Sequence record: OL631479.1
Source: Escherichia phage ECML-10
Reading direction: 5' to 3' (one strand)
DNA length: 64,000 nt
Of the stretch, positions 3,138 to 18,643 are shown in pieces (positions within the stretch are counted from its first letter, which is position 1; each line of letters begins with the position of its first letter). Both the position numbers and the translations under genes were made by a program. Below the pieces are notes generated by a model. The model was not told the DNA's origin, searched no databases, and was given only the letters and a program-made list of their open reading frames with translations.

Positions 3138-4127
3138 TTGACGATGATGGCAAAGTTAACTCTTGAGCAAATTTTAACACTAAAGCAGCAGGGATACACT
3201 AATAGACAAATTGCTCGTGAATTTTTAGGCCGTGAGTCACGTGAGAGTTGGATCCGACTACAGCTTAAACGTGCACAAGAGAATATGTCAGAGATTGTAG
3301 GAGAAGCAACGGAGCGCTTCCTTGAAGAACACAAAGGAGCTAAAGTTTGGGTGTATGATACAGAAACATCACCAACAAACGGCTGGTTCTTTGGGCACTA
3401 TAAGACCAACATTCAAACCTGCGGTATTGAAATTATGCCCTATATGCTAACTTTCGCAGGTAAGTGGTTAGACAGTCCTAGTGTGGTTGACTGCGCTCTT
3501 CCCGATTACAAAATGTGGGATGAGGATATTCACAATGACCTCGAATTGATTCAGGACTTGTGGTATTATCTGGATAAATGTGATGTCGCAGTAGCCCACA
3601 ATTCAGGTTTTGACTGTGGGTGGGCAAACCAACGATTTGCATTTCACGGGTTGCCTCCAACAAGCCCATACAAAGAGGTTGACACCCTTAAAATGATCAA
3701 GAAGGCATTCCGTTTGAATGCAAACACTTTGGAGTATGCATGCAAATACTTCCAACTTGCCAGACAGAAACTGATTGACCACACATTTGAAATGTGGATC
3801 AAGTGTGTTCATGGTGATCTTGAGGCGTTTAAACAGATGCGGGAGTACAATGTTGGTGATATCCTATCTCTGGAAGGCCTGTATTTGCTGGCACGCCCGT
3901 TTGCTAAGCAGCACCCCAACATGTCATTGTACTACCAGGATGAGGAGCCAAAAGTTCGTTGCCCACGCTGCGGTGGAGAACACCTTCACGAGGAAGAAGC
4001 TTTGGCGTATACTCAACTGAGTGCATTTAAAACATATCGCTGCGAAGGTTGTGGATCTGTTGTTCGTGACCGTAACAACATCCGTACCAGAGAAGAAATG
4101 AAAAACACCCTGATTCAGATAATCTAA
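3138..4127 (+). CDS. DnaQ-like 3'-5' exonuclease with N-terminal HTH-like segment and C-terminal CxxC zinc ribbon (putative)
   Basis: AAGGA RBS; exo-like motifs VYDTET, AVAHNSGFDCGW, YNVGD; C-terminal CPRCGG...CEGCG. Confidence 0.5.
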   Translation: MTMMAKLTLEQILTLKQQGYTNRQIAREFLGRESRESWIRLQLKRAQENMSEIVGEATERFLEEHKGAKVWVYDTETSPTNGWFFGHYKTNIQTCGIEIMPYMLTFAGKWLDSPSVVDCALPDYKMWDEDIHNDLELIQDLWYYLDKCDVAVAHNSGFDCGWANQRFAFHGLPPTSPYKEVDTLKMIKKAFRLNANTLEYACKYFQLARQKLIDHTFEMWIKCVHGDLEAFKQMREYNVGDILSLEGLYLLARPFAKQHPNMSLYYQDEEPKVRCPRCGGEHLHEEEALAYTQLSAFKTYRCEGCGSVVRDRNNIRTREEMKNTLIQII

Positions 4128-7035: not shown

Positions 7036-8018
7036 TGCTAAAACTGTGCACTGCAAAGATCATTGCTGACAGCATTTCCGAGAAAGGTAAGCGCATCACA
7101 ACTTTTGAGCTAGAGTATCCTCGAATTATTCACTCAGAGCTTATGACGCACCGAGTGTTCAGCCGAAACGCCATGTCTTCCCGTGCAGTGCCTGTCGGAA
7201 AGATGCTGCAACAGATTGTGGAGAATCCGGCAATGCCAGTTCGCTTCGGTGTAAATAAGCGAGGAATGGAAGATGGTGGGGAACACGATCAAAAGATCCG
7301 TGTAGAGTACACTGATATGGAGCTAACTCCGGAAGAGTTTTGGAAAGAAGCTGCAAAAAACGCCGCTTGGCATGCAGAGAAGTTTGCCCTTGCTGGTTAC
7401 CATAAGCAAGTATGTAACCGCTTAGTGGAGCCTTTTCAGCGCATGAAAACAGTTGTAACAAGCACCGAGTGGAATAATTTTTTCCACCTCCGTTGCTGGC
7501 ACGATGCGGATCCTACGATTCAGATGTTAGCTAATTGTATGTGGGAGGCTCTTGTGAATAGCACTCCTGAAATCCTTAAACCGGGTCAATGGCACACTCC
7601 ATATGTAGAGCACGTTTATTTGGACGGGGAGTTTAACTACGCTGTACGTGACACAGAAGGAAAGCTCTGCATTCTCGATACTAAAGAAGCTCTGTCTATC
7701 AGTGCTAGTTGCTGTGCACAAGTATCTTATCGAAATATTGACAGCACGTTTGAAAAGGCAGACAGTGTGGCTAAAAAATTGATTGGTGGGGATCGTATTC
7801 ATGCAAGCCCTTACGAGCACCAGGCAACACCTATGGATCACGATAACGCAATGGAACGTTTAAACTACTACCTGTCTTCATGTGAAATCACACAAGACAT
7901 CAGTACTTGGCAGGAAGGTGTAACCCATCAAGACCGTGATGGTAAATTCTGGTCTGCCAACTTTTGTGGGTGGGTTCAGCACAGACAACTGCTTAATAAC
8001 CACTTCGTGAAAGGTTAA
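7035..8018 (+). CDS. thyX: ThyX-like FAD-dependent thymidylate synthase (atypical)
   Basis: AAGGAGAG RBS; segment LMTHRVFSRNAMSSRAV resembles the ThyX RHR-x7-S signature but with T in place of the first R; 327 aa is longer than typical ThyX. Confidence 0.55.
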   Translation: MLKLCTAKIIADSISEKGKRITTFELEYPRIIHSELMTHRVFSRNAMSSRAVPVGKMLQQIVENPAMPVRFGVNKRGMEDGGEHDQKIRVEYTDMELTPEEFWKEAAKNAAWHAEKFALAGYHKQVCNRLVEPFQRMKTVVTSTEWNNFFHLRCWHDADPTIQMLANCMWEALVNSTPEILKPGQWHTPYVEHVYLDGEFNYAVRDTEGKLCILDTKEALSISASCCAQVSYRNIDSTFEKADSVAKKLIGGDRIHASPYEHQATPMDHDNAMERLNYYLSSCEITQDISTWQEGVTHQDRDGKFWSANFCGWVQHRQLLNNHFVKG

Positions 8019-8047
8019 TCCTATCACAGCGATAGGTAACTTTTGTG

Positions 8048-8076
8048 TTGACTAATAGTATTAGATAATCTATAAT
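8048..8076 (+). promoter_or_regulatory. sigma70-like promoter
   Basis: TTGACT-17 nt-TATAAT. Confidence 0.55.
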
Positions 8077-8103
8077 AATGGCTCACTTTGTTGGTGAGCC
8101 AGA

Positions 8104-8578
8104 AATGGAGACAGATATGAGTAATGTTATGATTCCTAAAAAGACATTTATTTCAGTTACTTTGGATTTCCTATCTACCGTTCCCGGGTTTAACGTTCGC
8201 ACACGAAACGGTCTCCGAGCTGCACTCTTTGCCGTAGGGTTTGATTTAAAAAGTATTGATGTTCTTCGTGGAAAAAACGTTCGATGCAAAAATAAGCCAA
8301 CACATTATCGAAAGGCAGATGTATTTGCTGGTGTCATGCGTGCAGACTTTAGATACCCGCAAATGTATAACGGTGTAGATATTTTAGATGTGGATAAAGC
8401 ACCTGGTGAGGCAATGCTTGTTCAAGATCTTCCGTATGATATTCCTGTAGAGGATCGTGTTAATGTAAGAAAGTATACAAAACAATCTGAAAAGGCTGAA
8501 GATATTCATATTGTTGATGAACCTTTCAATTTTGAAGATCTGCATCGCCTGGAAAAATTATTCGGTATTGAAAGCTAA
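8104..8578 (+). CDS. hypothetical protein
   Basis: ORF downstream of promoter; start uncertain (ATG at 8104 or 8116). Confidence 0.45.
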
Positions 8579-8588
8579 GGTGGTGAAG

Positions 8589-8819
8589 ATGAGTCATAAC
8601 TCCAAGTGGAAGGATCTTGGTTTTGCAAGTCGGTCAGAGTATGTTGGTTGGCTTTGGTTCAACGGCCTGACAAATGATATTAAAATGTATGATGATGTTT
8701 ATTATGACGAGTATACAGGCAAAATTATAAATATCTCTGTAGAAGAGGATACCTTTATCCAGCAAGATACTGATACCTGCCTTGATAAATACGTTGATGA
8801 AGTGGAGGAAGCAAATTGA
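8589..8819 (+). CDS. hypothetical acidic protein
   Basis: ATG after AAGGTGG RBS. Confidence 0.4.
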   Translation: MSHNSKWKDLGFASRSEYVGWLWFNGLTNDIKMYDDVYYDEYTGKIINISVEEDTFIQQDTDTCLDKYVDEVEEAN

Positions 8820-11131
8820 TCACCAAGGTAATTAAAAGCAACGGATGTGAAGTGGCATTCGATCCAGAACGTTTAAATAAGGCAGCTATTTTCGGTGACG
8901 ACGGTAACGGCAATTGGTCACATATTGCACTGGATGCATACAAACGACTGTATGATGGATGTACAACCAAAGAAGTTAACCAAGCTATCATAGACTCCTG
9001 TGTTAGCCGTAAAGACGAAGCACATTCCTGTATGGCTGGTCGTGTTCTTATTGGTCAGATTTATAAAGAGGCTTTTGGAGGGTTTACAAAGATCCCTTCC
9101 TTACCATCATTTTACAACGACATGGTTGAGAAAGGGTATTGGGAGGATATGGGATATAGCTTTACCGAGCTAAACACTTTAGACGCTGTTATTGACCACA
9201 GTAAAGATCTCGGTTATGGCTATGCAGTCCTTAAACAGTTTCGCGACAAATACGGGATCAAGGATACTCTTAAAGACACCTTGTTTGAATCTCCCCAGAT
9301 GATGTTTATGGGGATAGCAATGGCTGTCATGAAGAATATGCCGAAAGAACGTCGTATCAACGATGTTGTAAAATTATACACTTATCTGTCCGACTTAAAG
9401 ATCAATGCCCCGACACCGTACTTAAACGGGCTGCGCACAGGTAAGACAGGGTATGCATCTTGTTGTGTAATAAAAGCTGACGATACAGCAAAATCTATTG
9501 GTGTGGCACGTGAAGTTGCGTACACAATGACGGTTAACCAAGCAGGTATCGGCTACTATTTATCATCAAGATCTGCAGGTGATGGTGTTCGCGGTAACAC
9601 TATTAAACACATGGGTAAGATTCCATATTATCGAGGTATTGACGCTGGGGTTAAGGAGAACAGGCAACAATCACGTGGCGGTTCTGCAACAGTATCATTC
9701 CTTGCACTAGACCCGCAGATTGATGAGCTAATCCGCTTGAGAAACCCTATGACTGTTGCTTCAAAAAGAATCAACACCATGGACTACTCCATCGGTATTA
9801 ATAGGTCGTTTATCAACCGTGTGGCTAAGAATTTAGATTGGATGCTTGTTTCTTATAAGCACGCTCCTCAACTGCATGAGGGTATCTTCACCATGTCTAT
9901 GGAGGAGTTTGATGCAGAGGTTGATCGTATTGCTAAAGATGACAGTATCCCTAAAACATGGATCCGAGCCAGAGATCTTGCTGTTGAACTGATCACGCAG
10001 CGTACTGAGGTGGGAAGGCTGTATGTATACTGGACAGATGAGATGAATAGACATACACCTTTTAAAGATGTGATCTATTCAAGTAACCTGTGTGCAGAAA
10101 TAGCCCTCCCTACAAAAGGCTATTCAGATATGCGTAATATCTTCAAGTACGATGCTGATGATGGAGAGGTTGCATTGTGCTTCCTGTCATCTCTTGTAGC
10201 TGGAAGGGTTACTCCAGAGGAGTATGAGGATGTTGCATACTACACGGTGCTTATGATTGACAATGTTATGGAAATCATGACATATCCGTATGAAAATATG
10301 GAAAGCACAGTTAAAAAACGCAGATCCATCGGGGTTGGCCTTACCAATGTTGCACATTTTATTGCCAGCCACAAGGTTACTTACGGATCTCCTGAAAGTA
10401 AACAGCTTGTTCACGATCTTGCAGAACTTCACAGCTACAGCTTGCATAAGGCAAGTTTACGGTTGGCAAAAGAGCGTGGTGTCTGCGAGTGGATGCATAA
10501 AACAAAATATCCAGAAGGTTGGTTACCAATCGACACCTATAACAAAGAGGTCGATAGCGTGGTGAAAGATCCTTCTCTTAAACAGGATTGGGAAGGGTTA
10601 CGTAAAGAAATTATTGAAAATGGTGGGCTACGTAATAGCGTTCTTGAAGCATATATGCCTAATGAAAGCTCTTCGCTGGCAACAAACACCACTAACGGGG
10701 TTTATCCTGTCCGTGAGCACATTATCTTTAAAAAGTCGCCACAAGGGCAGGTGCTGTTTATCGTTCCTGACTATGATGAGTTGAAAGAGTATTACACCTC
10801 GGCTTGGGACGTTGATACTAACGACATGATCGATATGTATGCTGTGATTCAAAAATTTACAGGTCAGGCAATCAGCGCGGATTTATACATAGACTACACC
10901 AAGTTGAAAGATGGTAAAATTTCAATGAAGGAGCAGCTAGGGTACCTTATCCGTGCCACTAAATTCGGGATGAAGACATGGTATTATTTAAACTCCAGGG
11001 TTGGTGCTGGTGACTCATTGGCAGAGGAACTTCATGCCAAGAAACAGGCTGAAGATGAAACCAGAAAGAACTACCCTTTGATTGCAGATAGTTCGGTTGA
11101 AGATCCGTATTGCGAAAGTTGTGCACTATAA
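8816..11131 (+). CDS. nrdA: ribonucleotide reductase class Ia large subunit
   Basis: N-terminal ATP-cone (VIKSNGCEVAFDPERL), active-site NLCAEIALPT, 771 aa. Confidence 0.9.
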   Translation: MITKVIKSNGCEVAFDPERLNKAAIFGDDGNGNWSHIALDAYKRLYDGCTTKEVNQAIIDSCVSRKDEAHSCMAGRVLIGQIYKEAFGGFTKIPSLPSFYNDMVEKGYWEDMGYSFTELNTLDAVIDHSKDLGYGYAVLKQFRDKYGIKDTLKDTLFESPQMMFMGIAMAVMKNMPKERRINDVVKLYTYLSDLKINAPTPYLNGLRTGKTGYASCCVIKADDTAKSIGVAREVAYTMTVNQAGIGYYLSSRSAGDGVRGNTIKHMGKIPYYRGIDAGVKENRQQSRGGSATVSFLALDPQIDELIRLRNPMTVASKRINTMDYSIGINRSFINRVAKNLDWMLVSYKHAPQLHEGIFTMSMEEFDAEVDRIAKDDSIPKTWIRARDLAVELITQRTEVGRLYVYWTDEMNRHTPFKDVIYSSNLCAEIALPTKGYSDMRNIFKYDADDGEVALCFLSSLVAGRVTPEEYEDVAYYTVLMIDNVMEIMTYPYENMESTVKKRRSIGVGLTNVAHFIASHKVTYGSPESKQLVHDLAELHSYSLHKASLRLAKERGVCEWMHKTKYPEGWLPIDTYNKEVDSVVKDPSLKQDWEGLRKEIIENGGLRNSVLEAYMPNESSSLATNTTNGVYPVREHIIFKKSPQGQVLFIVPDYDELKEYYTSAWDVDTNDMIDMYAVIQKFTGQAISADLYIDYTKLKDGKISMKEQLGYLIRATKFGMKTWYYLNSRVGAGDSLAEELHAKKQAEDETRKNYPLIADSSVEDPYCESCAL

Positions 11132-11170: not shown

Positions 11171-12259
11171 ATGGCTGTATTTAATGCTGAGAACACCGCT
11201 CATAAAACTGGTGACTATCCGCTGTTTCTAGGACAGCAAATGGGTATGTATGACTCTATCAACAAAAAATATCCACAACTGTTTGAACTATACAAAAAAC
11301 AAAAAGAGCAAGATTGGGCAGAGGATGAAGTGGATTTGTCGCAATCTATTTCAGATTTTGTAACATGCTCCAAGTCAACTTATGACGTGATGGTGCAGAC
11401 CTTGATGTGGCAATGGGAGGCTGATAGCGTTGCGGCAAGATCGATCATCTGCCTCTTTTCACCATTCATCACTAATAGTGAGCTTTTCACTCTATTGATG
11501 AAACAGTCAGAGATTGAAGTTCTTCACGCACTAACTTACTCAGAGATTGTTAGACAATGCCTCCCCAATGCCCGTGAGATTATAGAAGAGATTCAGGAAA
11601 ACCAAAACGTTCTGAGCAGATCTGGCGTTATTGTCAAATACATGCAAGAGCTCGAGGTTATTGGTGCAAAATACCGACTGGATCCTTCTAGTGTTGAAGA
11701 AGATGTTGTGCGGAAATGCATTCTTAGAGCGCTTTTTGCACTTTTAGCCCTGGAAAGTATTGAGTTTATTGCAAGTTTTGCATGCACTTTCGCAGTAGCT
11801 GAACAGGGTATCTTTGTTCAGGTGGCGCAGCTTGTTCAAAAAATCATGCTTGACGAAATGCTACATTCGAAAGGTGATTTTGCCATCATTGATATCCTGC
11901 TTAATGATCCCACATGGGAGAAAAGCTTCCTTGAGATAAAGGGGGAGTTAAAAGAGATTCTTGATGAAGTACGAACCAAAGAGTACGGTTGGAGTGACTA
12001 TATTTTCAGCGAAGGAAGGGCGATTATAGGTCTTAACTCACCGTTGCTTAAAGAATGGGTTGACTATAACTGCTCACCGATTTATGATTACTACGACATC
12101 GACAAAGACTTTGTGCCGCCAACAAAGGACCCGCTACCGTTTATGCAGGTGTGGATGAAACCTTCATTGCAACAGACGGCGAACCAAGAAATGTCGAACA
12201 CTGACTACCGCGTCAACACAACTGTTAACGACGCTGAAGAAGAAATTTGGGAGTTTTAA
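11171..12259 (+). CDS. nrdB: ribonucleotide reductase class Ia small subunit
   Basis: 362 aa directly after nrdA; diiron-ligand-like E..H segments (LDEMLHSKGDF). Confidence 0.85.
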   Translation: MAVFNAENTAHKTGDYPLFLGQQMGMYDSINKKYPQLFELYKKQKEQDWAEDEVDLSQSISDFVTCSKSTYDVMVQTLMWQWEADSVAARSIICLFSPFITNSELFTLLMKQSEIEVLHALTYSEIVRQCLPNAREIIEEIQENQNVLSRSGVIVKYMQELEVIGAKYRLDPSSVEEDVVRKCILRALFALLALESIEFIASFACTFAVAEQGIFVQVAQLVQKIMLDEMLHSKGDFAIIDILLNDPTWEKSFLEIKGELKEILDEVRTKEYGWSDYIFSEGRAIIGLNSPLLKEWVDYNCSPIYDYYDIDKDFVPPTKDPLPFMQVWMKPSLQQTANQEMSNTDYRVNTTVNDAEEEIWEF

Positions 12260-12262
12260 TAT

Positions 12263-12541
12263 ATGAGCTGCGAAAAATCTTTTTTCATCATCATTTACGG
12301 TAAGGATAACTGCCCACATTGTGTCAGAGCAAAAGAATTTGCAATCAGCAAAGGTCTGCCTTTTGTATATAAGACACTTGGCGAGGGCTACACAAAAGAA
12401 GAGCTTATTGAGAAGTGTAGTCCAATCGTCCCCCGAACGTTGCCGCAGATCTTCTTAGAAAGCGATCTTGACAGTATCCATATAGGCGGTGCCGACGATT
12501 TCATCTCTTTTGTTAAGAATGGTTTTGGAGAGAAAAAGTGA
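12263..12541 (+). CDS. glutaredoxin/thioredoxin-like redoxin (NrdH/NrdC-like)
   Basis: CPHC active-site motif near N-terminus, 92 aa, between nrdB and nrdD. Confidence 0.6.
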   Translation: MSCEKSFFIIIYGKDNCPHCVRAKEFAISKGLPFVYKTLGEGYTKEELIEKCSPIVPRTLPQIFLESDLDSIHIGGADDFISFVKNGFGEKK

Positions 12542-13398
12542 AAGTTGTAAAACGGGACGGTAGAGAAGAGTTCTATAACGGAATTAAGGTGATCAAGGCG
12601 GCAGAGTCCGCCTTATTTGAGTCTGGACATACTGAAGAAGAAGCTTACCGGATCGCCTGCGAGGTTAATGAAGTTGTTGCTAACAATCTACCAACCGACC
12701 AGTGCACGATCTCTGTAAAAAATATCCATATCCTTGTTGAAGACGCTCTTATGGATATGGGTTTAAAATGTGCAGCCAGAGAATACATCCAGTATAGGCA
12801 GACAAGAGATAATAACAGAGAGGCAGGTGGAAAACTGCTCGCAGATATTAGTGGCTTCTTGGATCGCACTTGTGATGAATTTACAAAAGAAAACGCAAAT
12901 AAGCCTACCAATCATGTACACACTCATCGTGACCTGCTTGCAGGCATCCTTAGCAAACACCTTGCATCAACACAGATCCTGCCAGACCGTGTCTCAGAAG
13001 AGCACAATAAAGGCTTCATCCATGTGCATGATCTTGACTACTTGATCAGTCCGTTAACAAACTGTTGTTTGGTAAATTATCCAGATATGTTGGAAAACGG
13101 ATTCAACATTGGTAACGCCCATGTCAGTAAGCCGAAGTCAATAGGGGTTGCAACAACAATCCTTAGCCAAATCTCTAGTGCGGTAGCTAGTGCTCAATAT
13201 GGGGGTCAGACTATGAGCCATATTGATCATTATCTGGCACAGTATGCTGAAGCGACCTATGAGAAGAACCTTAAATTTTGCCAGGAACATTGGTTGCCAG
13301 ATGCTGAGACTGTTGCAATGCAAATGACAGATAAAGACGTATTTGACAGTATGCAGACATTACTTTATCAAATCAACACGTTAACCTCTGTCAACGGT
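12538..13398 (+). CDS. nrdD: anaerobic ribonucleotide reductase, exon 1
   Basis: GTG start overlapping upstream stop; ATP-cone N-terminus; ORF closes with a stop immediately after ...TSVNG, which continues in frame after the intron. Confidence 0.8.
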
Positions 13399-14195
13399 TA
13401 ACAAACTGGCCGTTGTAAAACTCTCCTAACCTCATAAGAGGGGTCGGTAAATCCGGCTAACGGGGAACGCTAAGGCGAAAGCTATGCCAATCCCGTGACT
13501 AGTTCTTACAGGAGTTGGAACGGTTGTAACGACTAACGAAAGGCAGAGATGCTTGACAAACATTTCTGAACCAAGTAGTGTAGGGGTTAGTTGAAATACT
13601 AACTTCGAAATGGAGAGGCTCTATGAAAAAGATCATTCTTAATGGTGAAGAATCAAACTATGTGATTGATGAGGTTGGAAACGTATACGGAAAACGTGGA
13701 ATGCTACACCCAATATTGTGGGGAGGTTATGGAAAAGGTAACAAGCATGTTAAACGCCGTTATATGTACTCTTTCAACCACAAAGGTAAAAAGATTCGAA
13801 TCCAAACCTCAAGGATTGTTGCCTTGTATTGTTTGCCGGATGTCCCAGAAGACCCTGAAAACTGGGAAGTGAATCATAAAGATGGCAATACATTGAATGA
13901 TCATCCGTCTAACCTAGAGTGGGTTTTGCCGGAAGATAATAAGAGACATGCTTTCCGAACAGGACTTTGTCCAGGTAAGTGCTATAGGAAAGTGCAGGCA
14001 TACAAAGGGAAAACCTTGGTGGGTGAATATCCTTCACTCTATGCCTGTGCAAAAGCCTTAAATTTGAACGTAGGTAACGTTCATAGGGCTATCGAAGGAA
14101 ATGCCGAAGGTAAGCATCTCACAATAAAGGGTTATTATCTTATTGAAGTAGAGTAAGAGATAGTCTGGCCCTGTGGAAACACAGGGAGGAGACAG
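13399..14195 (+). mobile_element. group I intron in nrdD carrying an HNH homing endonuclease ORF
   Basis: about 800 nt between nrdD halves; exon 1 ends in U, intron ends in G; fused junction reads TSVNG|QTPFITLSLG; structured non-coding flanks around the endonuclease ORF; boundaries approximate. Confidence 0.6.
13623..14156 (+). CDS. HNH homing endonuclease (intron-encoded)
   Basis: GGAGAGG RBS; motif WEVNHKDGNTLNDHPSNLEWVLPEDN typical of HNH family. Confidence 0.8.
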   Translation: MKKIILNGEESNYVIDEVGNVYGKRGMLHPILWGGYGKGNKHVKRRYMYSFNHKGKKIRIQTSRIVALYCLPDVPEDPENWEVNHKDGNTLNDHPSNLEWVLPEDNKRHAFRTGLCPGKCYRKVQAYKGKTLVGEYPSLYACAKALNLNVGNVHRAIEGNAEGKHLTIKGYYLIEVE

Positions 14196-15458
14196 CAGAC
14201 TCCATTCATCACATTAAGTTTAGGACTGGATACCTCGGTCTTTGGTAGAATGATTACCAAAAACTACTTGAAAGTCCACAAAATGGGTCTTGGTGAAGAA
14301 CGTATCACACCTGTGTTCCCTAAAGTGCTGTTCTTCCTAGAAGAGGGTGTCAACATGAACCCTGGAGATCCTAACTATGATTTGAAACGATTAGCTCTGG
14401 AATGCTCTGCAGAGCGGATTTATCCTGACTTTGTTTCTGTTCCACTAAATCGTAAAGTGACAGGCTCGACAGATGGTAAAGTAACGAGCATGGGTTGCCG
14501 GAGTTTTCTTAGCAAATACAATGACTTGGAAACAGGCGAGGAGAAATACCTTGGTAGATTTAACTTAGGCGTTGTTAGCCTTAACCTGCCAATGATTGCG
14601 GCAAAAGCTAAGACGGAAGGTGTTGATTTCTTTGCCGTTCTTGACGAGTATCTGGATTTGGCATATGAAGCTCACCTTGTAAGGGTTAACCGTCTGAAAG
14701 GCACCAAAGCAGGGCAGAACCCTATCATGTGGTGTGAAGGCGCTCTTGCTCGCCTGGATCCTGAAGAGAGTATTGATAAACTCTTCTATGACGGGTACGC
14801 TTCCATCAGTATTGGGTATATTGGTGTGTATGAAACCTGTCAGATTTTGGGCAGGGAGGGTGACAAGGCTTTAGCTCTTGGAATACTTCAGCACATGAGA
14901 GATGCTTGTGAGCGATACAAGAAGGAAAGTAGACTAGCGTTTAGCTTGTACGGCACCCCTTCTGAGAGTCTATGCTATAAAGCTGCAACCTGTCTGGATC
15001 GTGAATATCCTGAAGTGTTGAAGCACGAGCATGAATATCTCACCAACAGTTTCCATCAGCCAGTATGGATCAATAGCTCTCCTTTTGATAAGTGGGAGTA
15101 TGAGGAAGGTTTTGCTATGATCTCCTCTGGTGGCAACATCGGATACGTAGAGACACCAAATCTGAAAAACAACTTAGATGCTTTGGAAGCTCTTGTTGAT
15201 TTCGGATATAAACACATTATGTATTTTGGTATCAACCAGCCTGTGGATAAATGTCTCAAGTGTGGTTTCTCTGGTGAGTTCAGTGCAACAGCTAAAGGCT
15301 TTGTATGCCCAGAGTGCGGAAACCATGAAGAGGGAACGATCAGCGTAATTCGACGTGTGTCTGGATACCTTTCCAGTCCTAACTCTCGTCCTTACAATAA
15401 AGGTAAGCAAGCGGAAGTTATCGAGCGAGTTAAGCACTACGGAAGTTGTGGTTGCTGA
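14196..15458 (+). CDS. nrdD: anaerobic ribonucleotide reductase, exon 2
   Basis: C-terminal zinc ribbon CLKCG...CPECG and glycyl-radical motif RRVSGY; exon start inferred from reading-frame continuity. Confidence 0.8.
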   Translation, partial: QTPFITLSLGLDTSVFGRMITKNYLKVHKMGLGEERITPVFPKVLFFLEEGVNMNPGDPNYDLKRLALECSAERIYPDFVSVPLNRKVTGSTDGKVTSMGCRSFLSKYNDLETGEEKYLGRFNLGVVSLNLPMIAAKAKTEGVDFFAVLDEYLDLAYEAHLVRVNRLKGTKAGQNPIMWCEGALARLDPEESIDKLFYDGYASISIGYIGVYETCQILGREGDKALALGILQHMRDACERYKKESRLAFSLYGTPSESLCYKAATCLDREYPEVLKHEHEYLTNSFHQPVWINSSPFDKWEYEEGFAMISSGGNIGYVETPNLKNNLDALEALVDFGYKHIMYFGINQPVDKCLKCGFSGEFSATAKGFVCPECGNHEEGTISVIRRVSGYLSSPNSRPYNKGKQAEVIERVKHYGSCGC

Positions 15459-15524
15459 TACTTGACAAAAGCCACAAGGATGTGGCACACTTAGTTCAAA
15501 GATTAGAGCTAAGAAGGTTCAGCA

Positions 15525-16652
15525 GTGTCCAGAAAACTTACAACAGATGAGTTTATAAAGAGGGCAAAAGCAGTTCATGGAGATAAGTATGATTACTCTA
15601 AGGTTGAGTATGTAAATGCCTGCACCAAGGTTATAATTATCTGCCCATATCATGGAGAATTTGAACAAGCTACCCACCAACACCTTGCAGGACGAGGCTG
15701 CCGGGAATGTGGAAAGCTAAAAATGGCACAAAGCCACATTATACCACATAAGGAGTGGTTGAATGTTATCCAAGAGGTCAATCCTTATGTCGAAGTGATT
15801 GGAGAAATAATAAGCTGCAGAACAAAAGTGCCGTGCCGCTGCAAAATTTGCAGTCATGAATGGTCAGCAATGCCTTATCTTCTTAAACAAGGACATGGGT
15901 GCCCTAGATGCGGCAAGCTAAAATTCGCACAAAGCAGAGCTATAGCCCATACCGAGTGGGTCGAGGACATAACGAAGAAAAATACATATATTGAAATAGT
16001 AGAAAGGGTTAAAAATAGCGATACACCAGTATTGGCACGATGCAAAATTTGTAGTCATGAATGGTTAGCAAGACCATCCCATCTTAAACGAGGGCATGGG
16101 TGCCCTAGATGTAAAGGCAATGCAAAGAGATCCCATGTGGAATGGGTAGGGCATATAAAGGTTGTCAATCCAAGTATTAAAGTGCTTGGAAAAATTAAAA
16201 ACGGCAGTGCAAAAGTATTATGTAGGTGTAAGATTTGTGATTATGAATGGTCTCCTGCTCCTATTAGGCTCAAGCAAGGACATGGGTGCCCTAGATGTGC
16301 TAACTACGGCTTTTTATCGTACAATCACGGCAAACTTTACATTATGGTTGATGACTTAGAAGTACCAACACTTATGAAGATCGGTATTAGCGTCAGTGTC
16401 GAAGAGAGAAAAGATAGGATATTGAAAAGTGCCAAAAGGGCAGGGGTAGGTATTTATGATCTCTACCTGGCGAAAACGTGGGAAGGATCAACTCAAAACA
16501 TGGCAGATTTAGAAAAATCTGTGCATAAGGCCTTCAGCAAGTATAAAATAAACTTCCCTGTAAAATTTGATGGTAGCACAGAATTCTTCTACTACAGGCC
16601 TGAAGTGTTTGACACGGTGGAAGAAGTATACAGGAAGATTTGTGGTAAATGA
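15525..16652 (+). CDS. zinc-ribbon repeat protein with C-terminal T5orf172/GIY-YIG-like domain (putative freestanding homing endonuclease)
   Basis: GTG start; four repeats of C-x-I-C-x-H/Y-EW...GHGCPRC; C-terminus YIMVDD...KIGIS...TEFFY. Confidence 0.5.
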   Translation: MSRKLTTDEFIKRAKAVHGDKYDYSKVEYVNACTKVIIICPYHGEFEQATHQHLAGRGCRECGKLKMAQSHIIPHKEWLNVIQEVNPYVEVIGEIISCRTKVPCRCKICSHEWSAMPYLLKQGHGCPRCGKLKFAQSRAIAHTEWVEDITKKNTYIEIVERVKNSDTPVLARCKICSHEWLARPSHLKRGHGCPRCKGNAKRSHVEWVGHIKVVNPSIKVLGKIKNGSAKVLCRCKICDYEWSPAPIRLKQGHGCPRCANYGFLSYNHGKLYIMVDDLEVPTLMKIGISVSVEERKDRILKSAKRAGVGIYDLYLAKTWEGSTQNMADLEKSVHKAFSKYKINFPVKFDGSTEFFYYRPEVFDTVEEVYRKICGK

Positions 16653-16704
16653 TCGTAGAAAGATATGCATATCTTAAATATGCTATTAACTAAGGAGGTT
16701 CAGT

Positions 16705-16821
16705 ATGTCATCGGGTATCTATAAAATCTGCAAGTGCGGTTGTCATTGTAATCTTCGTTGGTGCAAGGCACTGGACGATTTTATTTGGCATTGCCCTAAA
16801 TGTGATGCGGAGTATCTATGA
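16705..16821 (+). CDS. small Cys-rich protein (38 aa)
   Basis: strong AAGGAGG RBS; CKCGCHCN...HCPKCD; stop overlaps nrdG start (ATGA). Confidence 0.4.
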   Translation: MSSGIYKICKCGCHCNLRWCKALDDFIWHCPKCDAEYL

Positions 16822-17291
16822 ACATTGCCGGATACACAGAAATATCTTACACCGAAGGGCCAGGTATTAGAACTGCCTTATGGGTATCTGGGTGCCCACA
16901 CGCCTGCCCTGGTTGCTTTAATCAGGCATTTTGGTCAAAAGATAAAGGAAGAGAGTTCACTGAAGAAGACTTGCAAAAAATCTTGTCAGATTTAGATAAC
17001 CCGTCTGTGTGCGGTATCTCTCTGCTGGGTGGAGAACCCTTAGCATACTATAATGAGCCAGATATTATTAACCTGATGGAGAAAATTAAGGAAAAATTTG
17101 GTGACAAGAAAACTATTCTTGTATATACTGGGTTCACATTTGACCATATCTCTAGCGATGTTCTTAAACTGGCTGATATCATCATTGACGGTAAGTATGT
17201 AAAAGATTTACCAACCAAGAAACCGTTCCGAGGTAGCGATAACCAAAGAATGTTTAAAAAAGTATCAGGCGGTTGGGTTCAGGTAGACTAG
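16818..17291 (+). CDS. nrdG: anaerobic ribonucleotide reductase activating protein
   Basis: radical-SAM cluster motif CPHACPGC near N-terminus, 157 aa, adjacent to nrdD. Confidence 0.8.
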   Translation: MNIAGYTEISYTEGPGIRTALWVSGCPHACPGCFNQAFWSKDKGREFTEEDLQKILSDLDNPSVCGISLLGGEPLAYYNEPDIINLMEKIKEKFGDKKTILVYTGFTFDHISSDVLKLADIIIDGKYVKDLPTKKPFRGSDNQRMFKKVSGGWVQVD

Positions 17292-17294
17292 TTG

Positions 17295-17324
17295 TTGACA
17301 AAGCTTTGTTTAGATAGGTATAAT
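17295..17324 (+). promoter_or_regulatory. sigma70-like promoter
   Basis: TTGACA-18 nt-TATAAT. Confidence 0.55.
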
Positions 17325-17355
17325 TATCGTAAAATGAAAGCAGAGGAGGTGCCAA

Positions 17356-17469
17356 ATGGCTAAAAAAGCCTTGAAGAAGGCGTACAAGAAAGAGATTGCG
17401 CTTGAGCTTAAGAAAAAACACAAGCGTGAAAAGAAACATCATGAGGATGAAGAGGGGGTGCAACAGTGA
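17356..17469 (+). CDS. small Lys-rich basic protein (37 aa)
   Basis: GAGGAGG RBS; MAKKALKKAYKKEIALELKKKHKREKK; stop overlaps next start. Confidence 0.35.
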   Translation: MAKKALKKAYKKEIALELKKKHKREKKHHEDEEGVQQ

Positions 17470-17816
17470 CACAAGAACGTATCGATTTGGCTAATAAGTT
17501 TGTAGATCTCATTTTGCCACGGTTAGTTACTCAACATGCAGACGCTATTTCTACTAATCTTGATGGCTTACGTCTAATGCTAAATCGCACAGATGACCCT
17601 CGTATTCGGGCTGATTTAGAAGCCTCTGCCAACAAACTGGAAAAGTTCTTGCAAGTAGATACGCAAGAAGCCTTACACAAGATTATGGTGGAAGGTTTCT
17701 CTAAAGAATTTACCATTAAAGAGCTTAAGGAGCTGATCCACCAAGAAGAGATGAATATCCGAGTTCAGGCTGTTGCAAGCAGCATGGAGGCGGCTATTGA
17801 AAAACTGTTGCAGTAA
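17466..17816 (+). CDS. hypothetical protein
   Basis: 116 aa ORF, GTG start. Confidence 0.4.
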   Translation: MTQERIDLANKFVDLILPRLVTQHADAISTNLDGLRLMLNRTDDPRIRADLEASANKLEKFLQVDTQEALHKIMVEGFSKEFTIKELKELIHQEEMNIRVQAVASSMEAAIEKLLQ

Positions 17817-17854
17817 AAGTACTTGGCACATCTCAATCTGAAAGGAGTCCCAAC

Positions 17855-18643
17855 ATGGGTCGAGCTAAAGAAACAAAACGCATGCGTGATGAAGCTAGAG
17901 AGGCTCGCAAATCTGATCGCCTGCGTAAGGCTGCTGAGAAATTTGCTGACGAACGAGAGCACACCGCTCCAGCTCTCCGACCAATGAATAAAAAGCAGCA
18001 AAAGTATCTTGATTATCTAGGGTCACGTAAGATTATTATTGTAAACGGTGTGTTTGGATCCGGTAAGACATTCATGGCATCTGCATATGCAGGTGATCTT
18101 CTGCGTAAGAATGAGATTGATAAGATCATTGTTGCACGTCCTTATGTACAGACCGGAAAATCAAGCGGATACAAACCGGGAACGTCAATGCAGAAGCTTT
18201 GGCCTTACCTTCGTAGTATGATGGACACGATTTGTCGTCGTGTTGGCAAAGGTGCTTTTGCCGCAATGCTGGGAGACGGTCAGAACAGCCGTATCGAGAT
18301 TTGTGAAGTTGAAAGCATTCGTGGTCGTAGTTTCGATGAGCGATGCTTTGTCCTGATTGACGAGGCACAGCAAACTAACCCTGAAGAAATGTTGTCAATT
18401 ATCACAAGGATCTCTGATCAGGCCACCCTTGTAATTATGGGCGATAATAGCCAACGTGACATCCCTGGTAAATCTGGCCTTGCATGGGTGACGGATTTCT
18501 TTACTCGTCATCCAGATCCTGAGGTTGGAATGATCAGCTTTGATAGTCCAGACGATGTCGTTCGTTCCGGGTTGGGTCGTCAGATTGCACTCAATCTTAT
18601 TGAGGATCGTGCAAATCATATTTGGACCCCTGTTTCCGAGTAA
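17855..18643 (+). CDS. phoH: PhoH-like ATPase
   Basis: Walker A GVFGSGKTFMAS and overall PhoH-like layout; GGAG RBS. Confidence 0.85.
   Translation: MGRAKETKRMRDEAREARKSDRLRKAAEKFADEREHTAPALRPMNKKQQKYLDYLGSRKIIIVNGVFGSGKTFMASAYAGDLLRKNEIDKIIVARPYVQTGKSSGYKPGTSMQKLWPYLRSMMDTICRRVGKGAFAAMLGDGQNSRIEICEVESIRGRSFDERCFVLIDEAQQTNPEEMLSIITRISDQATLVIMGDNSQRDIPGKSGLAWVTDFFTRHPDPEVGMISFDSPDDVVRSGLGRQIALNLIEDRANHIWTPVSE

Follow-up and report, generated by a model that had tools for sequence, protein, structure and literature searches.

What kind of gene separates nrdD from nrdG in Escherichia phage ECML-10, and how it came to be there, is the question raised by an open reading frame (ORF) at positions 15525-16652 (plus strand) of the 64,000-nucleotide stretch of record OL631479.1 that was analysed here, hereafter the window. 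The window derives from a Vequintavirus (an rV5-like coliphage), and its interval 12000-18000 is 93-98% identical to MaxBurger, FFH2, slur16 and JEP1; most rV5-like relatives align over only 80% of this interval because the gene is absent from them. The ORF is uninterrupted: it starts with GTG, with a GAAGG ribosome-binding site 7-8 nt 5' of the start codon, encodes 375 aa and ends with TGA at 16650-16652. Its location between nrdD and nrdG, as given in the original prediction, was borne out. On the left flank lies exon 2 of nrdD (14196..15458, plus strand; Pfam NRDD and Gly_radical), delimited by alignment to the uninterrupted nrdD of rV5, and on the right flank lies nrdG, which encodes the anaerobic ribonucleotide reductase (RNR) activase (16818..17291, plus strand; Pfam Fer4_12, E 8.6e-43, and Radical_SAM). 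Between the ORF and nrdG is a conserved Cys-rich ORF of 38 aa (16706..16822, plus strand), which directly follows the insertion site on the right; its stop codon overlaps the nrdG start (ATGA). The 38-aa ORF was called in loci L003-L005 and is annotated in MaxBurger, JEP1, navn and I29, and family profile searches with it, including Pfam, returned zero matches. No paralogue of the larger ORF was found elsewhere within the 64-kb window.

The ORF is probably a free-standing homing endonuclease gene (HEG) of the T5orf172 branch of the GIY-YIG superfamily, carried in a 1.2-kb cassette in the Vequintavirus nrdD-nrdG intergenic region. This reading is favoured because of the domain profile matches, the invariant catalytic and Zn-binding residues, the precise and patchy insertion, the greater sequence identity of the cassette than of its flanks, the occurrence of the same allele in contigs with different nrdD introns, and a position next to RNR genes that is typical of such elements. 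The original prediction of a putative freestanding homing endonuclease is thereby supported at the level of sequence.

The N-terminal ~261 aa of the HEG protein consist of four repeats, as originally proposed; the unit is 61-68 aa in length and not the ~55 aa first estimated, with the second knuckles (C59, C126, C193 and C255) spaced by 67, 67 and 62 residues. Module 1 (aa 1-66; 15525..15722, plus strand) is of type A, with the signature HGDKYDYS ... CPYH ... GCRECG and the predicted ligands C40, H43, C59 and C62. The remaining three are of type B: module 2 (aa 67-133; 15723..15923, plus strand) reads NPYVEVIG ... CRCKICSHEW ... GHGCPRCG, is matched by Pfam DUF4379 and CapR and has the predicted ligands C106, C109, C126 and C129; module 3 (aa 134-198; 15924..16118, plus strand; predicted ligands C173, C176, C193 and C196) contains the top DUF4379 and CapR stretches (151-198 and 150-197, respectively); and module 4 (aa 199-261; 16119..16307, plus strand) has the predicted ligands C235, C238, C255 and C258. 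The motif C(R)CKIC-x-H/Y-EW...GHGCPRC, initially assigned to every repeat, is present in modules 2-4 only, module 1 being the other subtype (HGDKYDYS...CPYHGEF...GRGCRECG) and just 23-27% identical to modules 2-4. The repeats go beyond chance resemblance, as judged from the identity among modules 2-4 both in protein (47-52% pairwise) and in DNA (modules 2 and 3, 85% over 74 nt, E 5e-20; modules 2 and 4, 70% over 134 nt, E 2e-13) and from the conservation of the ligands. Each module contains a CxxC/H ... CxxC set, that is, two paired Cys/His knuckles predicted to be able to hold one Zn, and across 35 homologues all ligands except H43 and C109 are either invariant, as are C40, C59 and C62 of module 1, or at least 90% conserved.

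Profile searches, which had been suggested as a check on both halves of the protein, gave matches above the Pfam cut-offs in each. For the N-terminal half these were DUF4379 ('probable treble clef zinc finger'; 59.7 bits against a cut-off of 24.5, E 3.3e-16, in three stretches) and the CapR homology domain (47.3 bits against 24.2, E 2.3e-12, in two stretches); the Pfam scan of the HEG protein itself did not return DUF723, which is listed solely in precomputed homologue annotations. The resemblance of the C-terminus to T5orf172/GIY-YIG-like domains was confirmed by the match to Pfam T5orf172 (PF10544; 43.6 bits against a cut-off of 20, E 4.5e-11), which spans residues 272-372 and profile positions 4-100 of 101; the isolated C-terminal domain alone scores 31.4 bits. 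The related family MUG113 also matches (31.4 bits against 22.3, E 3e-7), as do two endonuclease families of PHROGs (phrog_559 and phrog_681, E 2.7e-75 and 9.2e-68), whilst searches with the NCBIfam and PADLOC profiles yielded no meaningful family, the PADLOC match being marginal at most. An exact-sequence lookup of the window HEG protein gave zero matches, and a 99%-identical protein (P0001) stood in for it. A PDB sequence search found no close relative with a solved structure, returning only weak DUF4379 matches to trypanosome mitoribosome assembly factors (E 9e-4 and 8e-3).

The nuclease domain occupies aa 262-375 and, with the stop codon, positions 16308..16652 (plus strand). Its motifs are LYIM (Y272), KIGIS (K285 and G287), R295, E330/H334 and TEFF (E353), and in a 35-sequence alignment Y272, K285, G287, R295, E330, H334 and E353-F354-F355 are invariant. 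An AlphaFold2 model built from 35 homologues had a mean pLDDT of 89.9 and a pTM of 0.49, a low value that is expected if the modules are independent beads. In this model each repeat consists of a helix and then short beta-hairpins (in module 1, helix 7-18 and beta-hairpin 35-49, with pLDDT >90), and the C-terminus is a beta-beta-alpha-beta-alpha unit. The model matches the GIY-YIG nucleases SLX1, I-TevI, Eco29kI and UvrC, and the C-terminal domain is accordingly predicted to adopt the GIY-YIG alpha/beta fold. The canonical GIY ... YIG motifs are replaced by LYI(M) and KIG(I/V)S, and helix 292-306 contains neither of the His/Tyr residues that mark the first helix, a departure known for T5orf172 domains and shared by Odn; these degenerate motifs place the domain in the T5orf172 branch and not among the classical GIY-YIG enzymes.

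The assignment of the active site draws on Odn (gp88) of phage ICP1, the sequence of which was fetched from the ICP1 genome and is 24% identical to the HEG domain over 70 aa. Odn carrying E180A is inactive both in vitro and in vivo, and E180 was equated by the authors with E75 of I-TevI (PMC8263062). E330, in DLEKSVH, aligns with Odn E180 and, since this residue is catalytically required there, is the predicted equivalent of the catalytic glutamate. The original prediction had highlighted the glutamate of STEFFY instead; STEFFY corresponds to a C-terminal motif, E-[WF]-F, that belongs to the T5orf172 domain. Counterparts of the catalytic Arg and Glu of I-TevI (R27 and E75) and of the first-strand Tyr can likewise be assigned by alignment, the mapping to I-TevI being indirect, through Odn; a direct hhalign profile comparison with the I-TevI sequence did not reach significance.

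The HEG ORF is the central part of a cassette of 1205 bp (15488..16692, plus strand), comprising a leader, the ORF and a trailer, which in the alignment with MaxBurger replaces ~22 nt of the empty site. Homology to MaxBurger stops at window position 15487 (...CCACAAGGATGTGGCA|) and restarts at ~16693, immediately 5' of AAGGAGGT, which serves the 38-aa ORF as ribosome-binding site. The 5' leader (15488..15524, plus strand), which includes the ribosome-binding site, has the sequence GAGCTAAGAAGGTTCAGCAGTG and is common to the alleles of O157 typing phage 14 and JEP1, the proteins of which are just 39-53% identical to that of the window. The 3' trailer (16653..16692, plus strand) is also common to divergent alleles: it is nearly identical in the window, phiWec189, JEP1, navn and I29, with a sliding identity of 86-96% for Mangalyan, phiWec189, JEP1, navn and I29, 78% for nom and 66% for O157 typing phage 14. 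Both the left junction ...CCACAAGGATGTGGCA| and the trailer recur in other alleles, and the occupied records join at one junction, after ...GGATGTGGCA. The ribosome-binding site and start of the cassette (CTAAGAAGGTTCAGCAGTG) resemble those of the 38-aa ORF (CTAAGGAGGTTCAGTATG). At the empty site, two promoter-like matches, TTGACA-18-CATATT and TTGACA-17-TACAGT, straddle the junction; disruption of a promoter by the insertion was considered on this ground, but these are matches to a consensus and no proof of function.

The distribution of the cassette was surveyed in 121 Vequintavirus records, using both flanks joined as the query, and 11 loci were fetched. The site is empty in MaxBurger and in most of the 121 records, a T5orf172 gene is found at exactly the same junction in at least 26 of them, and some records (the rV5 type) contain unrelated small ORFs and a divergent nrdG instead; about 80% of close relatives have no gene at the site. 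Close relatives that are otherwise collinear thus differ in whether such a gene occupies this single position, as would be expected of a free-standing HEG. It should be noted that ordinary recombination and deletion could also give rise to such a presence/absence pattern, which counts against the homing reading. The window allele itself, at 99% aa identity, is also found at this site in six contigs (~135-139 kb; from public runs) with differing nrdD intron content, and the ORF is intact and free of frameshifts in other carrier genomes. The wider family is large, with 1032 phage records and 2784 database proteins matching.

At least seven alleles occur at this junction; they are 39-54% identical to the window allele in amino-acid sequence, and the closest other pairs reach up to 86%. 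The alleles vary in their array of modules, which is ABBB in the window, AABA in Mangalyan, AAAA in O157 typing phage 14, ABA in JEP1, AAB in navn/naam/I29 and in nom, and AAA in phiWec189. DNA identity between alleles is 78-95% in the leader, in the trailer and towards the 3' end of the nuclease domain, against 10-76% in the module region. Searches at the DNA level with the binding-domain region of the window allele gave no match, either among the deposited phages or in 5,426 complete E. coli genomes; the latter result gives no sign of recent prophage or satellite exchange. That the DNA-binding arrays at a single locus differ so strongly from one another (39-54% aa identity to the window allele) would be unexpected if the alleles had one common target, and this too sits uneasily with homing.

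Signs of mobility come from a comparison of the cassette with its surroundings. Between the window and L003 the cassette differs by 8 mismatches in 1205 nt (99.3% identical), compared with ~57 in 1293 nt on the left flank (95.6%) and ~36 in 1408 nt on the right (97.4%), which suggests that the cassette is of more recent origin than its backgrounds or has been transferred between them. At its 3' end nrdD contains a block of polymorphism (15299..15356, plus strand) that covers the second Zn knuckle just 5' of the glycyl-radical motif and exists in two forms, which differ by ~20 substitutions and six amino-acid changes. The window has type 1 (GFVCPECGNHEEGTISV), which is typical of empty-site genomes, whilst most HEG carriers have type 2 (GFCCPACGCHDEQYISV). 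Type 2 was found in 36 records, namely ~22 of ~26 occupied against ~14 of ~95 unoccupied ones, counts that are taken from BLAST tables and are phylogenetically non-independent. A scan of IMG/VR with NrdG for more sites produced just two loci, and the occupancy and linkage figures consequently remain approximations from BLAST tables. The window breaks the linkage, as it combines the gene with a type-1 block where other carriers of the same allele have type 2, which points to recombination within ~150 bp of the cassette. The block may represent a co-conversion tract or a target-immunity variant. It was also considered as the cleavage target of this allele; the type-1 form is unlikely to be so, given that the window holds both the gene and the type-1 block.

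A mechanism can be proposed in which the four zinc-ribbon modules (one of type A and three of type B) would fold independently, each holding one Zn through its CxxC/H...CxxC ligands, and would lie along the DNA as beads on a string, jointly recognising a site that is long and asymmetric. Cleavage near the bound site would then fall to the C-terminal GIY-YIG-like domain (Y272, R295 and E330). During a mixed infection, the enzyme would be expected to target relatives without the cassette or with a different allele, cutting them at the nrdD-nrdG junction or close to it, and recombinational repair from the cassette-bearing genome would copy the gene, together with some flanking sequence, into the cut genome.

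The same features can be read in other ways. The nuclease may have been domesticated or neofunctionalised at a fixed locus, where it would serve the phage by cutting competitors, satellites or host DNA in the manner of Odn, with the module array under diversifying selection. The existence of at least seven reshuffled-array alleles at one locus, with a conserved nuclease domain, leader and trailer, would fit this explanation, as would the retention by the window of an nrdD block of the empty-site type without apparent self-harm, and there is precedent for it in the T5orf172 domains of Odn, Gp5 and coliphage Odn-like genes (PMC8263062; Barth, Dunham and Seed 2023, PMC10448857). It is nevertheless unlikely: the absence of the gene from ~80% of close relatives implies that it is dispensable, the Pfam scan of the HEG protein did not find a RepA_N-type domain such as that of Odn, the PADLOC match to a defence family is only marginal, and nothing points to a satellite or prophage target, with zero DNA-level matches in the 5,426 complete E. 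coli genomes. Even more doubtful is that the product is a CapR-like DNA-binding regulator that does not cut, or a decaying homing endonuclease which persists through its linkage to the nrd operon. CapR does provide an example of Zn modules acting as a transcriptional repressor, and T5orf172 was originally proposed to be a DNA-binding domain (PMC8096241); the insertion point also falls within the promoter-like sequence of the empty site (the TTGACA-18-CATATT and TTGACA-17-TACAGT matches). CapR, however, has no nuclease domain, whereas here that domain is complete, with Y272, R295, E330, H334 and E353 invariant across the 35 homologues. Decay is contradicted by an ORF that is intact and 99% identical in other carriers with zero frameshifts, and a cassette that is more conserved than its flanks is the opposite of what decay would produce.

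A further, rather speculative view is that the Vequintavirus nrdD-nrdG junction is a cassette-exchange locus, in which a constant leader, trailer and nuclease domain surround a reshuffled Zn-module array. The alleles would then compete, each cutting genomes with a rival allele or with particular nrdD variants, or they would act as anti-competitor or anti-satellite nucleases. If this holds, and the chance appears to be small, the locus would amount to a naturally occurring set of modular, programmable arrays for DNA recognition, the code of which could be read from allele/target pairs.

To return to the homing endonuclease interpretation, the HEG protein can be set beside systems that are better known. 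In I-TevI and the T4 Seg proteins the nuclease domain is N-terminal, the reverse of the domain order seen here, and the protein further differs from them in its degenerate GIY and YIG motifs (LYI...KIG) and in having other DNA-binding modules. T4 also has a gene, mobD, between nrdG and nrdD, which encodes an HNH enzyme.

The original prediction regarded the architecture as unusual, a view that did not hold, as two families of PHROGs exist for it and CapR/DUF723/DUF4379-type zinc fingers have been found in 200 of 229 (87%) phage T5orf172 HEGs, many of which contain several (PMC10448857). These arrays were described as 'beads on a string', the modularity of which would let target recognition diversify, and both DNA-level repeats and recombination between modules were demonstrated in T5orf172 HEGs (PMC10448857). 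Proximity to conserved RNR genes is a typical feature of phage HEGs, with 33% of 468 T5orf172 neighbourhoods adjoining ribonucleotide reductase genes, and the authors state that homing of the ICP1 T5orf172 genes is without experimental demonstration (PMC10448857). The HEG protein resembles gp174, gp165, gp121, gp130 and gp53 of ICP1 and proteins of Vibrio phage Helene and others, in which repeated N-terminal Zn modules are followed by a C-terminal T5orf172 domain, and it shares with the HEGs of that study the repeats visible in DNA, the free-standing and RNR-adjacent position, the variable presence and the shuffling of modules between alleles. The gene type and its architecture have thus already been described for phages; what is added here is the Vequintavirus lineage, which is not named among the enriched clades of the study ('rV5' occurs zero times in it), the exact junction and the series of at least seven alleles documented there.

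Odn (Gp88) of ICP1 is similar in its T5orf172 domain, in the conserved catalytic Arg and Glu (E330 aligning with E180) and in that both proteins lack the classical first-helix His/Tyr of GIY-YIG enzymes (PMC8263062). It differs in that its DNA-binding domain is of the RepA_N type (Pfam DUF6945) and that it is an anti-satellite weapon, whilst the HEG protein has four Zn modules and a homing-type distribution. Odn was the only T5orf172 nuclease found for which biochemical data exist (PMC8263062). With CapR of PLE, four conserved Cys of which are required for DNA binding (PMC8096241), the likeness lies in the zinc-finger module with paired Cys motifs (47.3 bits in Pfam); CapR is encoded by a satellite and is a repressor with one module and no nuclease domain, compared with the four modules and nuclease of the HEG protein.

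With its naturally empty sites and a junction that is host to at least seven alleles, this locus is a convenient system in which to study homing, map targets and examine DNA recognition module by module. Vequintaviruses grow on E. coli K-12, and the gene would offer a tractable E. coli system for what would, to our knowledge, be a first biochemical test of a zinc-finger T5orf172 endonuclease, covering its target, cleavage pattern and homing. There is also a gain for annotation, as relatives have been deposited as 'hypothetical protein', 'zinc-ribbon domain-containing protein' or, by way of PHROG labels, 'HNH endonuclease', where the proper label would be T5orf172 (GIY-YIG-type) homing endonuclease gene. 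Other names in the databases are 'GIY-YIG nuclease family protein' and 'DUF723 domain-containing protein'.

The nrdD gene of the window is interrupted by an insertion of 797 bp (13399-14195), as defined by comparison with the uninterrupted nrdD of rV5, which separates two exons at about 12538-13398 and 14196-15458. The flanks of the insertion share 98.4-98.7% identity with rV5 nrdD, its length is no multiple of 3, and joining the exons yields a 707-aa NrdD whose junction region is identical to that of rV5 NrdD. In the MaxBurger record the nrdD coding sequence is annotated as joined. Within the insertion lies an ORF for a 177-aa HNH_3 endonuclease (13623-14156). At the boundaries, T is the last exon base and G the last base of the insert, and GGCCGTTG, just within the insert, can pair with the exon sequence CAACGGT to give a P1-like helix. 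The Rfam group I intron match in the insert is weak (27.7 bits, E 4e-4) and falls under the gathering score of 50. These features identify the insertion as a group I intron that encodes a homing endonuclease, like the intron in T4 nrdD.

Interruption of nrdD varies across the Vequintaviruses. Among the fetched loci there are at least two alternative intron positions (L005, 1-2934; JEP1, 134-2071; navn, 101-2086; L004, 554-2934; also L006 and L009). The second site is located downstream of the first and holds a different ORF of 169 aa, annotated in JEP1 as an HNH homing endonuclease, and JEP1 appears to contain both introns. In L004 the first position is occupied by an ORF-less interruption of about 340 bp, and nrdD is uninterrupted in O157 typing phage 14, phiWec189 and rV5. 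Mobile elements thus have a hot spot in the nrdD gene of this group.

Further variation is found towards nrdG. The 3′ end of nrdD carries a dense two-state polymorphism (15299-15356), in which GFVCPECGNHEEGTISV (type 1, the form in the window) alternates with GFCCPACGCHDEQYISV (type 2). Over a stretch of about 45 nt the two forms differ by about 20 substitutions, which alter C-terminal zinc knuckle residues beside the glycyl-radical motif. Of the Vequintavirus records, 36 have type 2, and this form is enriched in genomes with the downstream T5orf172 gene. In genomes lacking that gene, the empty site, as seen in MaxBurger (locus positions 3963-4022; corresponding part of the window, 15462-15487), contains the sequence GCCACAAGGATGTGGC, a short hairpin, together with two matches that resemble promoters: TTGACA-18-CATATT, with TG upstream, and TTGACA-17-TACAGT. 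The junction of the 1205-bp T5orf172 cassette lies in the -10 element of the first match, and the -35 element of the second is lost through the insertion. A conserved Cys-rich ORF of 38 aa (MSSGIYKICKCGCHCNLRWCKALDDFIWHCPKCDAEYL; 16706-16822), the stop of which overlaps the nrdG start, is retained in empty and occupied genomes alike; it has no family match in Pfam and NCBIfam scans, and is wrongly annotated as an anaerobic reductase in some records.

Two forms of nrdG with only about 45% protein identity exist within Vequintaviruses that are otherwise about 95% identical (rV5 locus, 1306-2345; Mangalyan; naam), and the rV5-type form is accompanied by extra small ORFs between nrdD and nrdG (ORF114-116), one of which is labelled ‘putative minor capsid protein’. 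The entire nrdD-nrdG interval is thus mosaic.

Matches to the T5orf172 protein of the window were also observed elsewhere. Enterobacteria phage mEp021, a coliphage of 54.7 kb (MH706966.1), matches it at nine separate places (7752-8837 and eight others), the best with 49% identity over 99% of the length, which suggests that the zinc-finger/T5orf172 family has undergone a large expansion in this much smaller genome. Some Vequintaviruses, namely C2 (MG065655.1, 26598-27410) and phiWec191 (LC739540.1, 31241-32053), have a homologue that is more distant, at about 30% identity. The C2 homologue lies outside the surveyed stretch, about 0.8 kb past its phoH end, so a second site for the family may exist in this part of the genome; no such paralogue is found within the 64-kb window. 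About 20 GenBank records named ‘Campylobacter phage’ (MG0656xx; for example MG065646, MG065655 and MG065672) give Campylobacter jejuni as host. Across the surveyed region these records share 95-97% identity with rV5-like Vequintaviruses of E. coli, and the host assignment looks doubtful.
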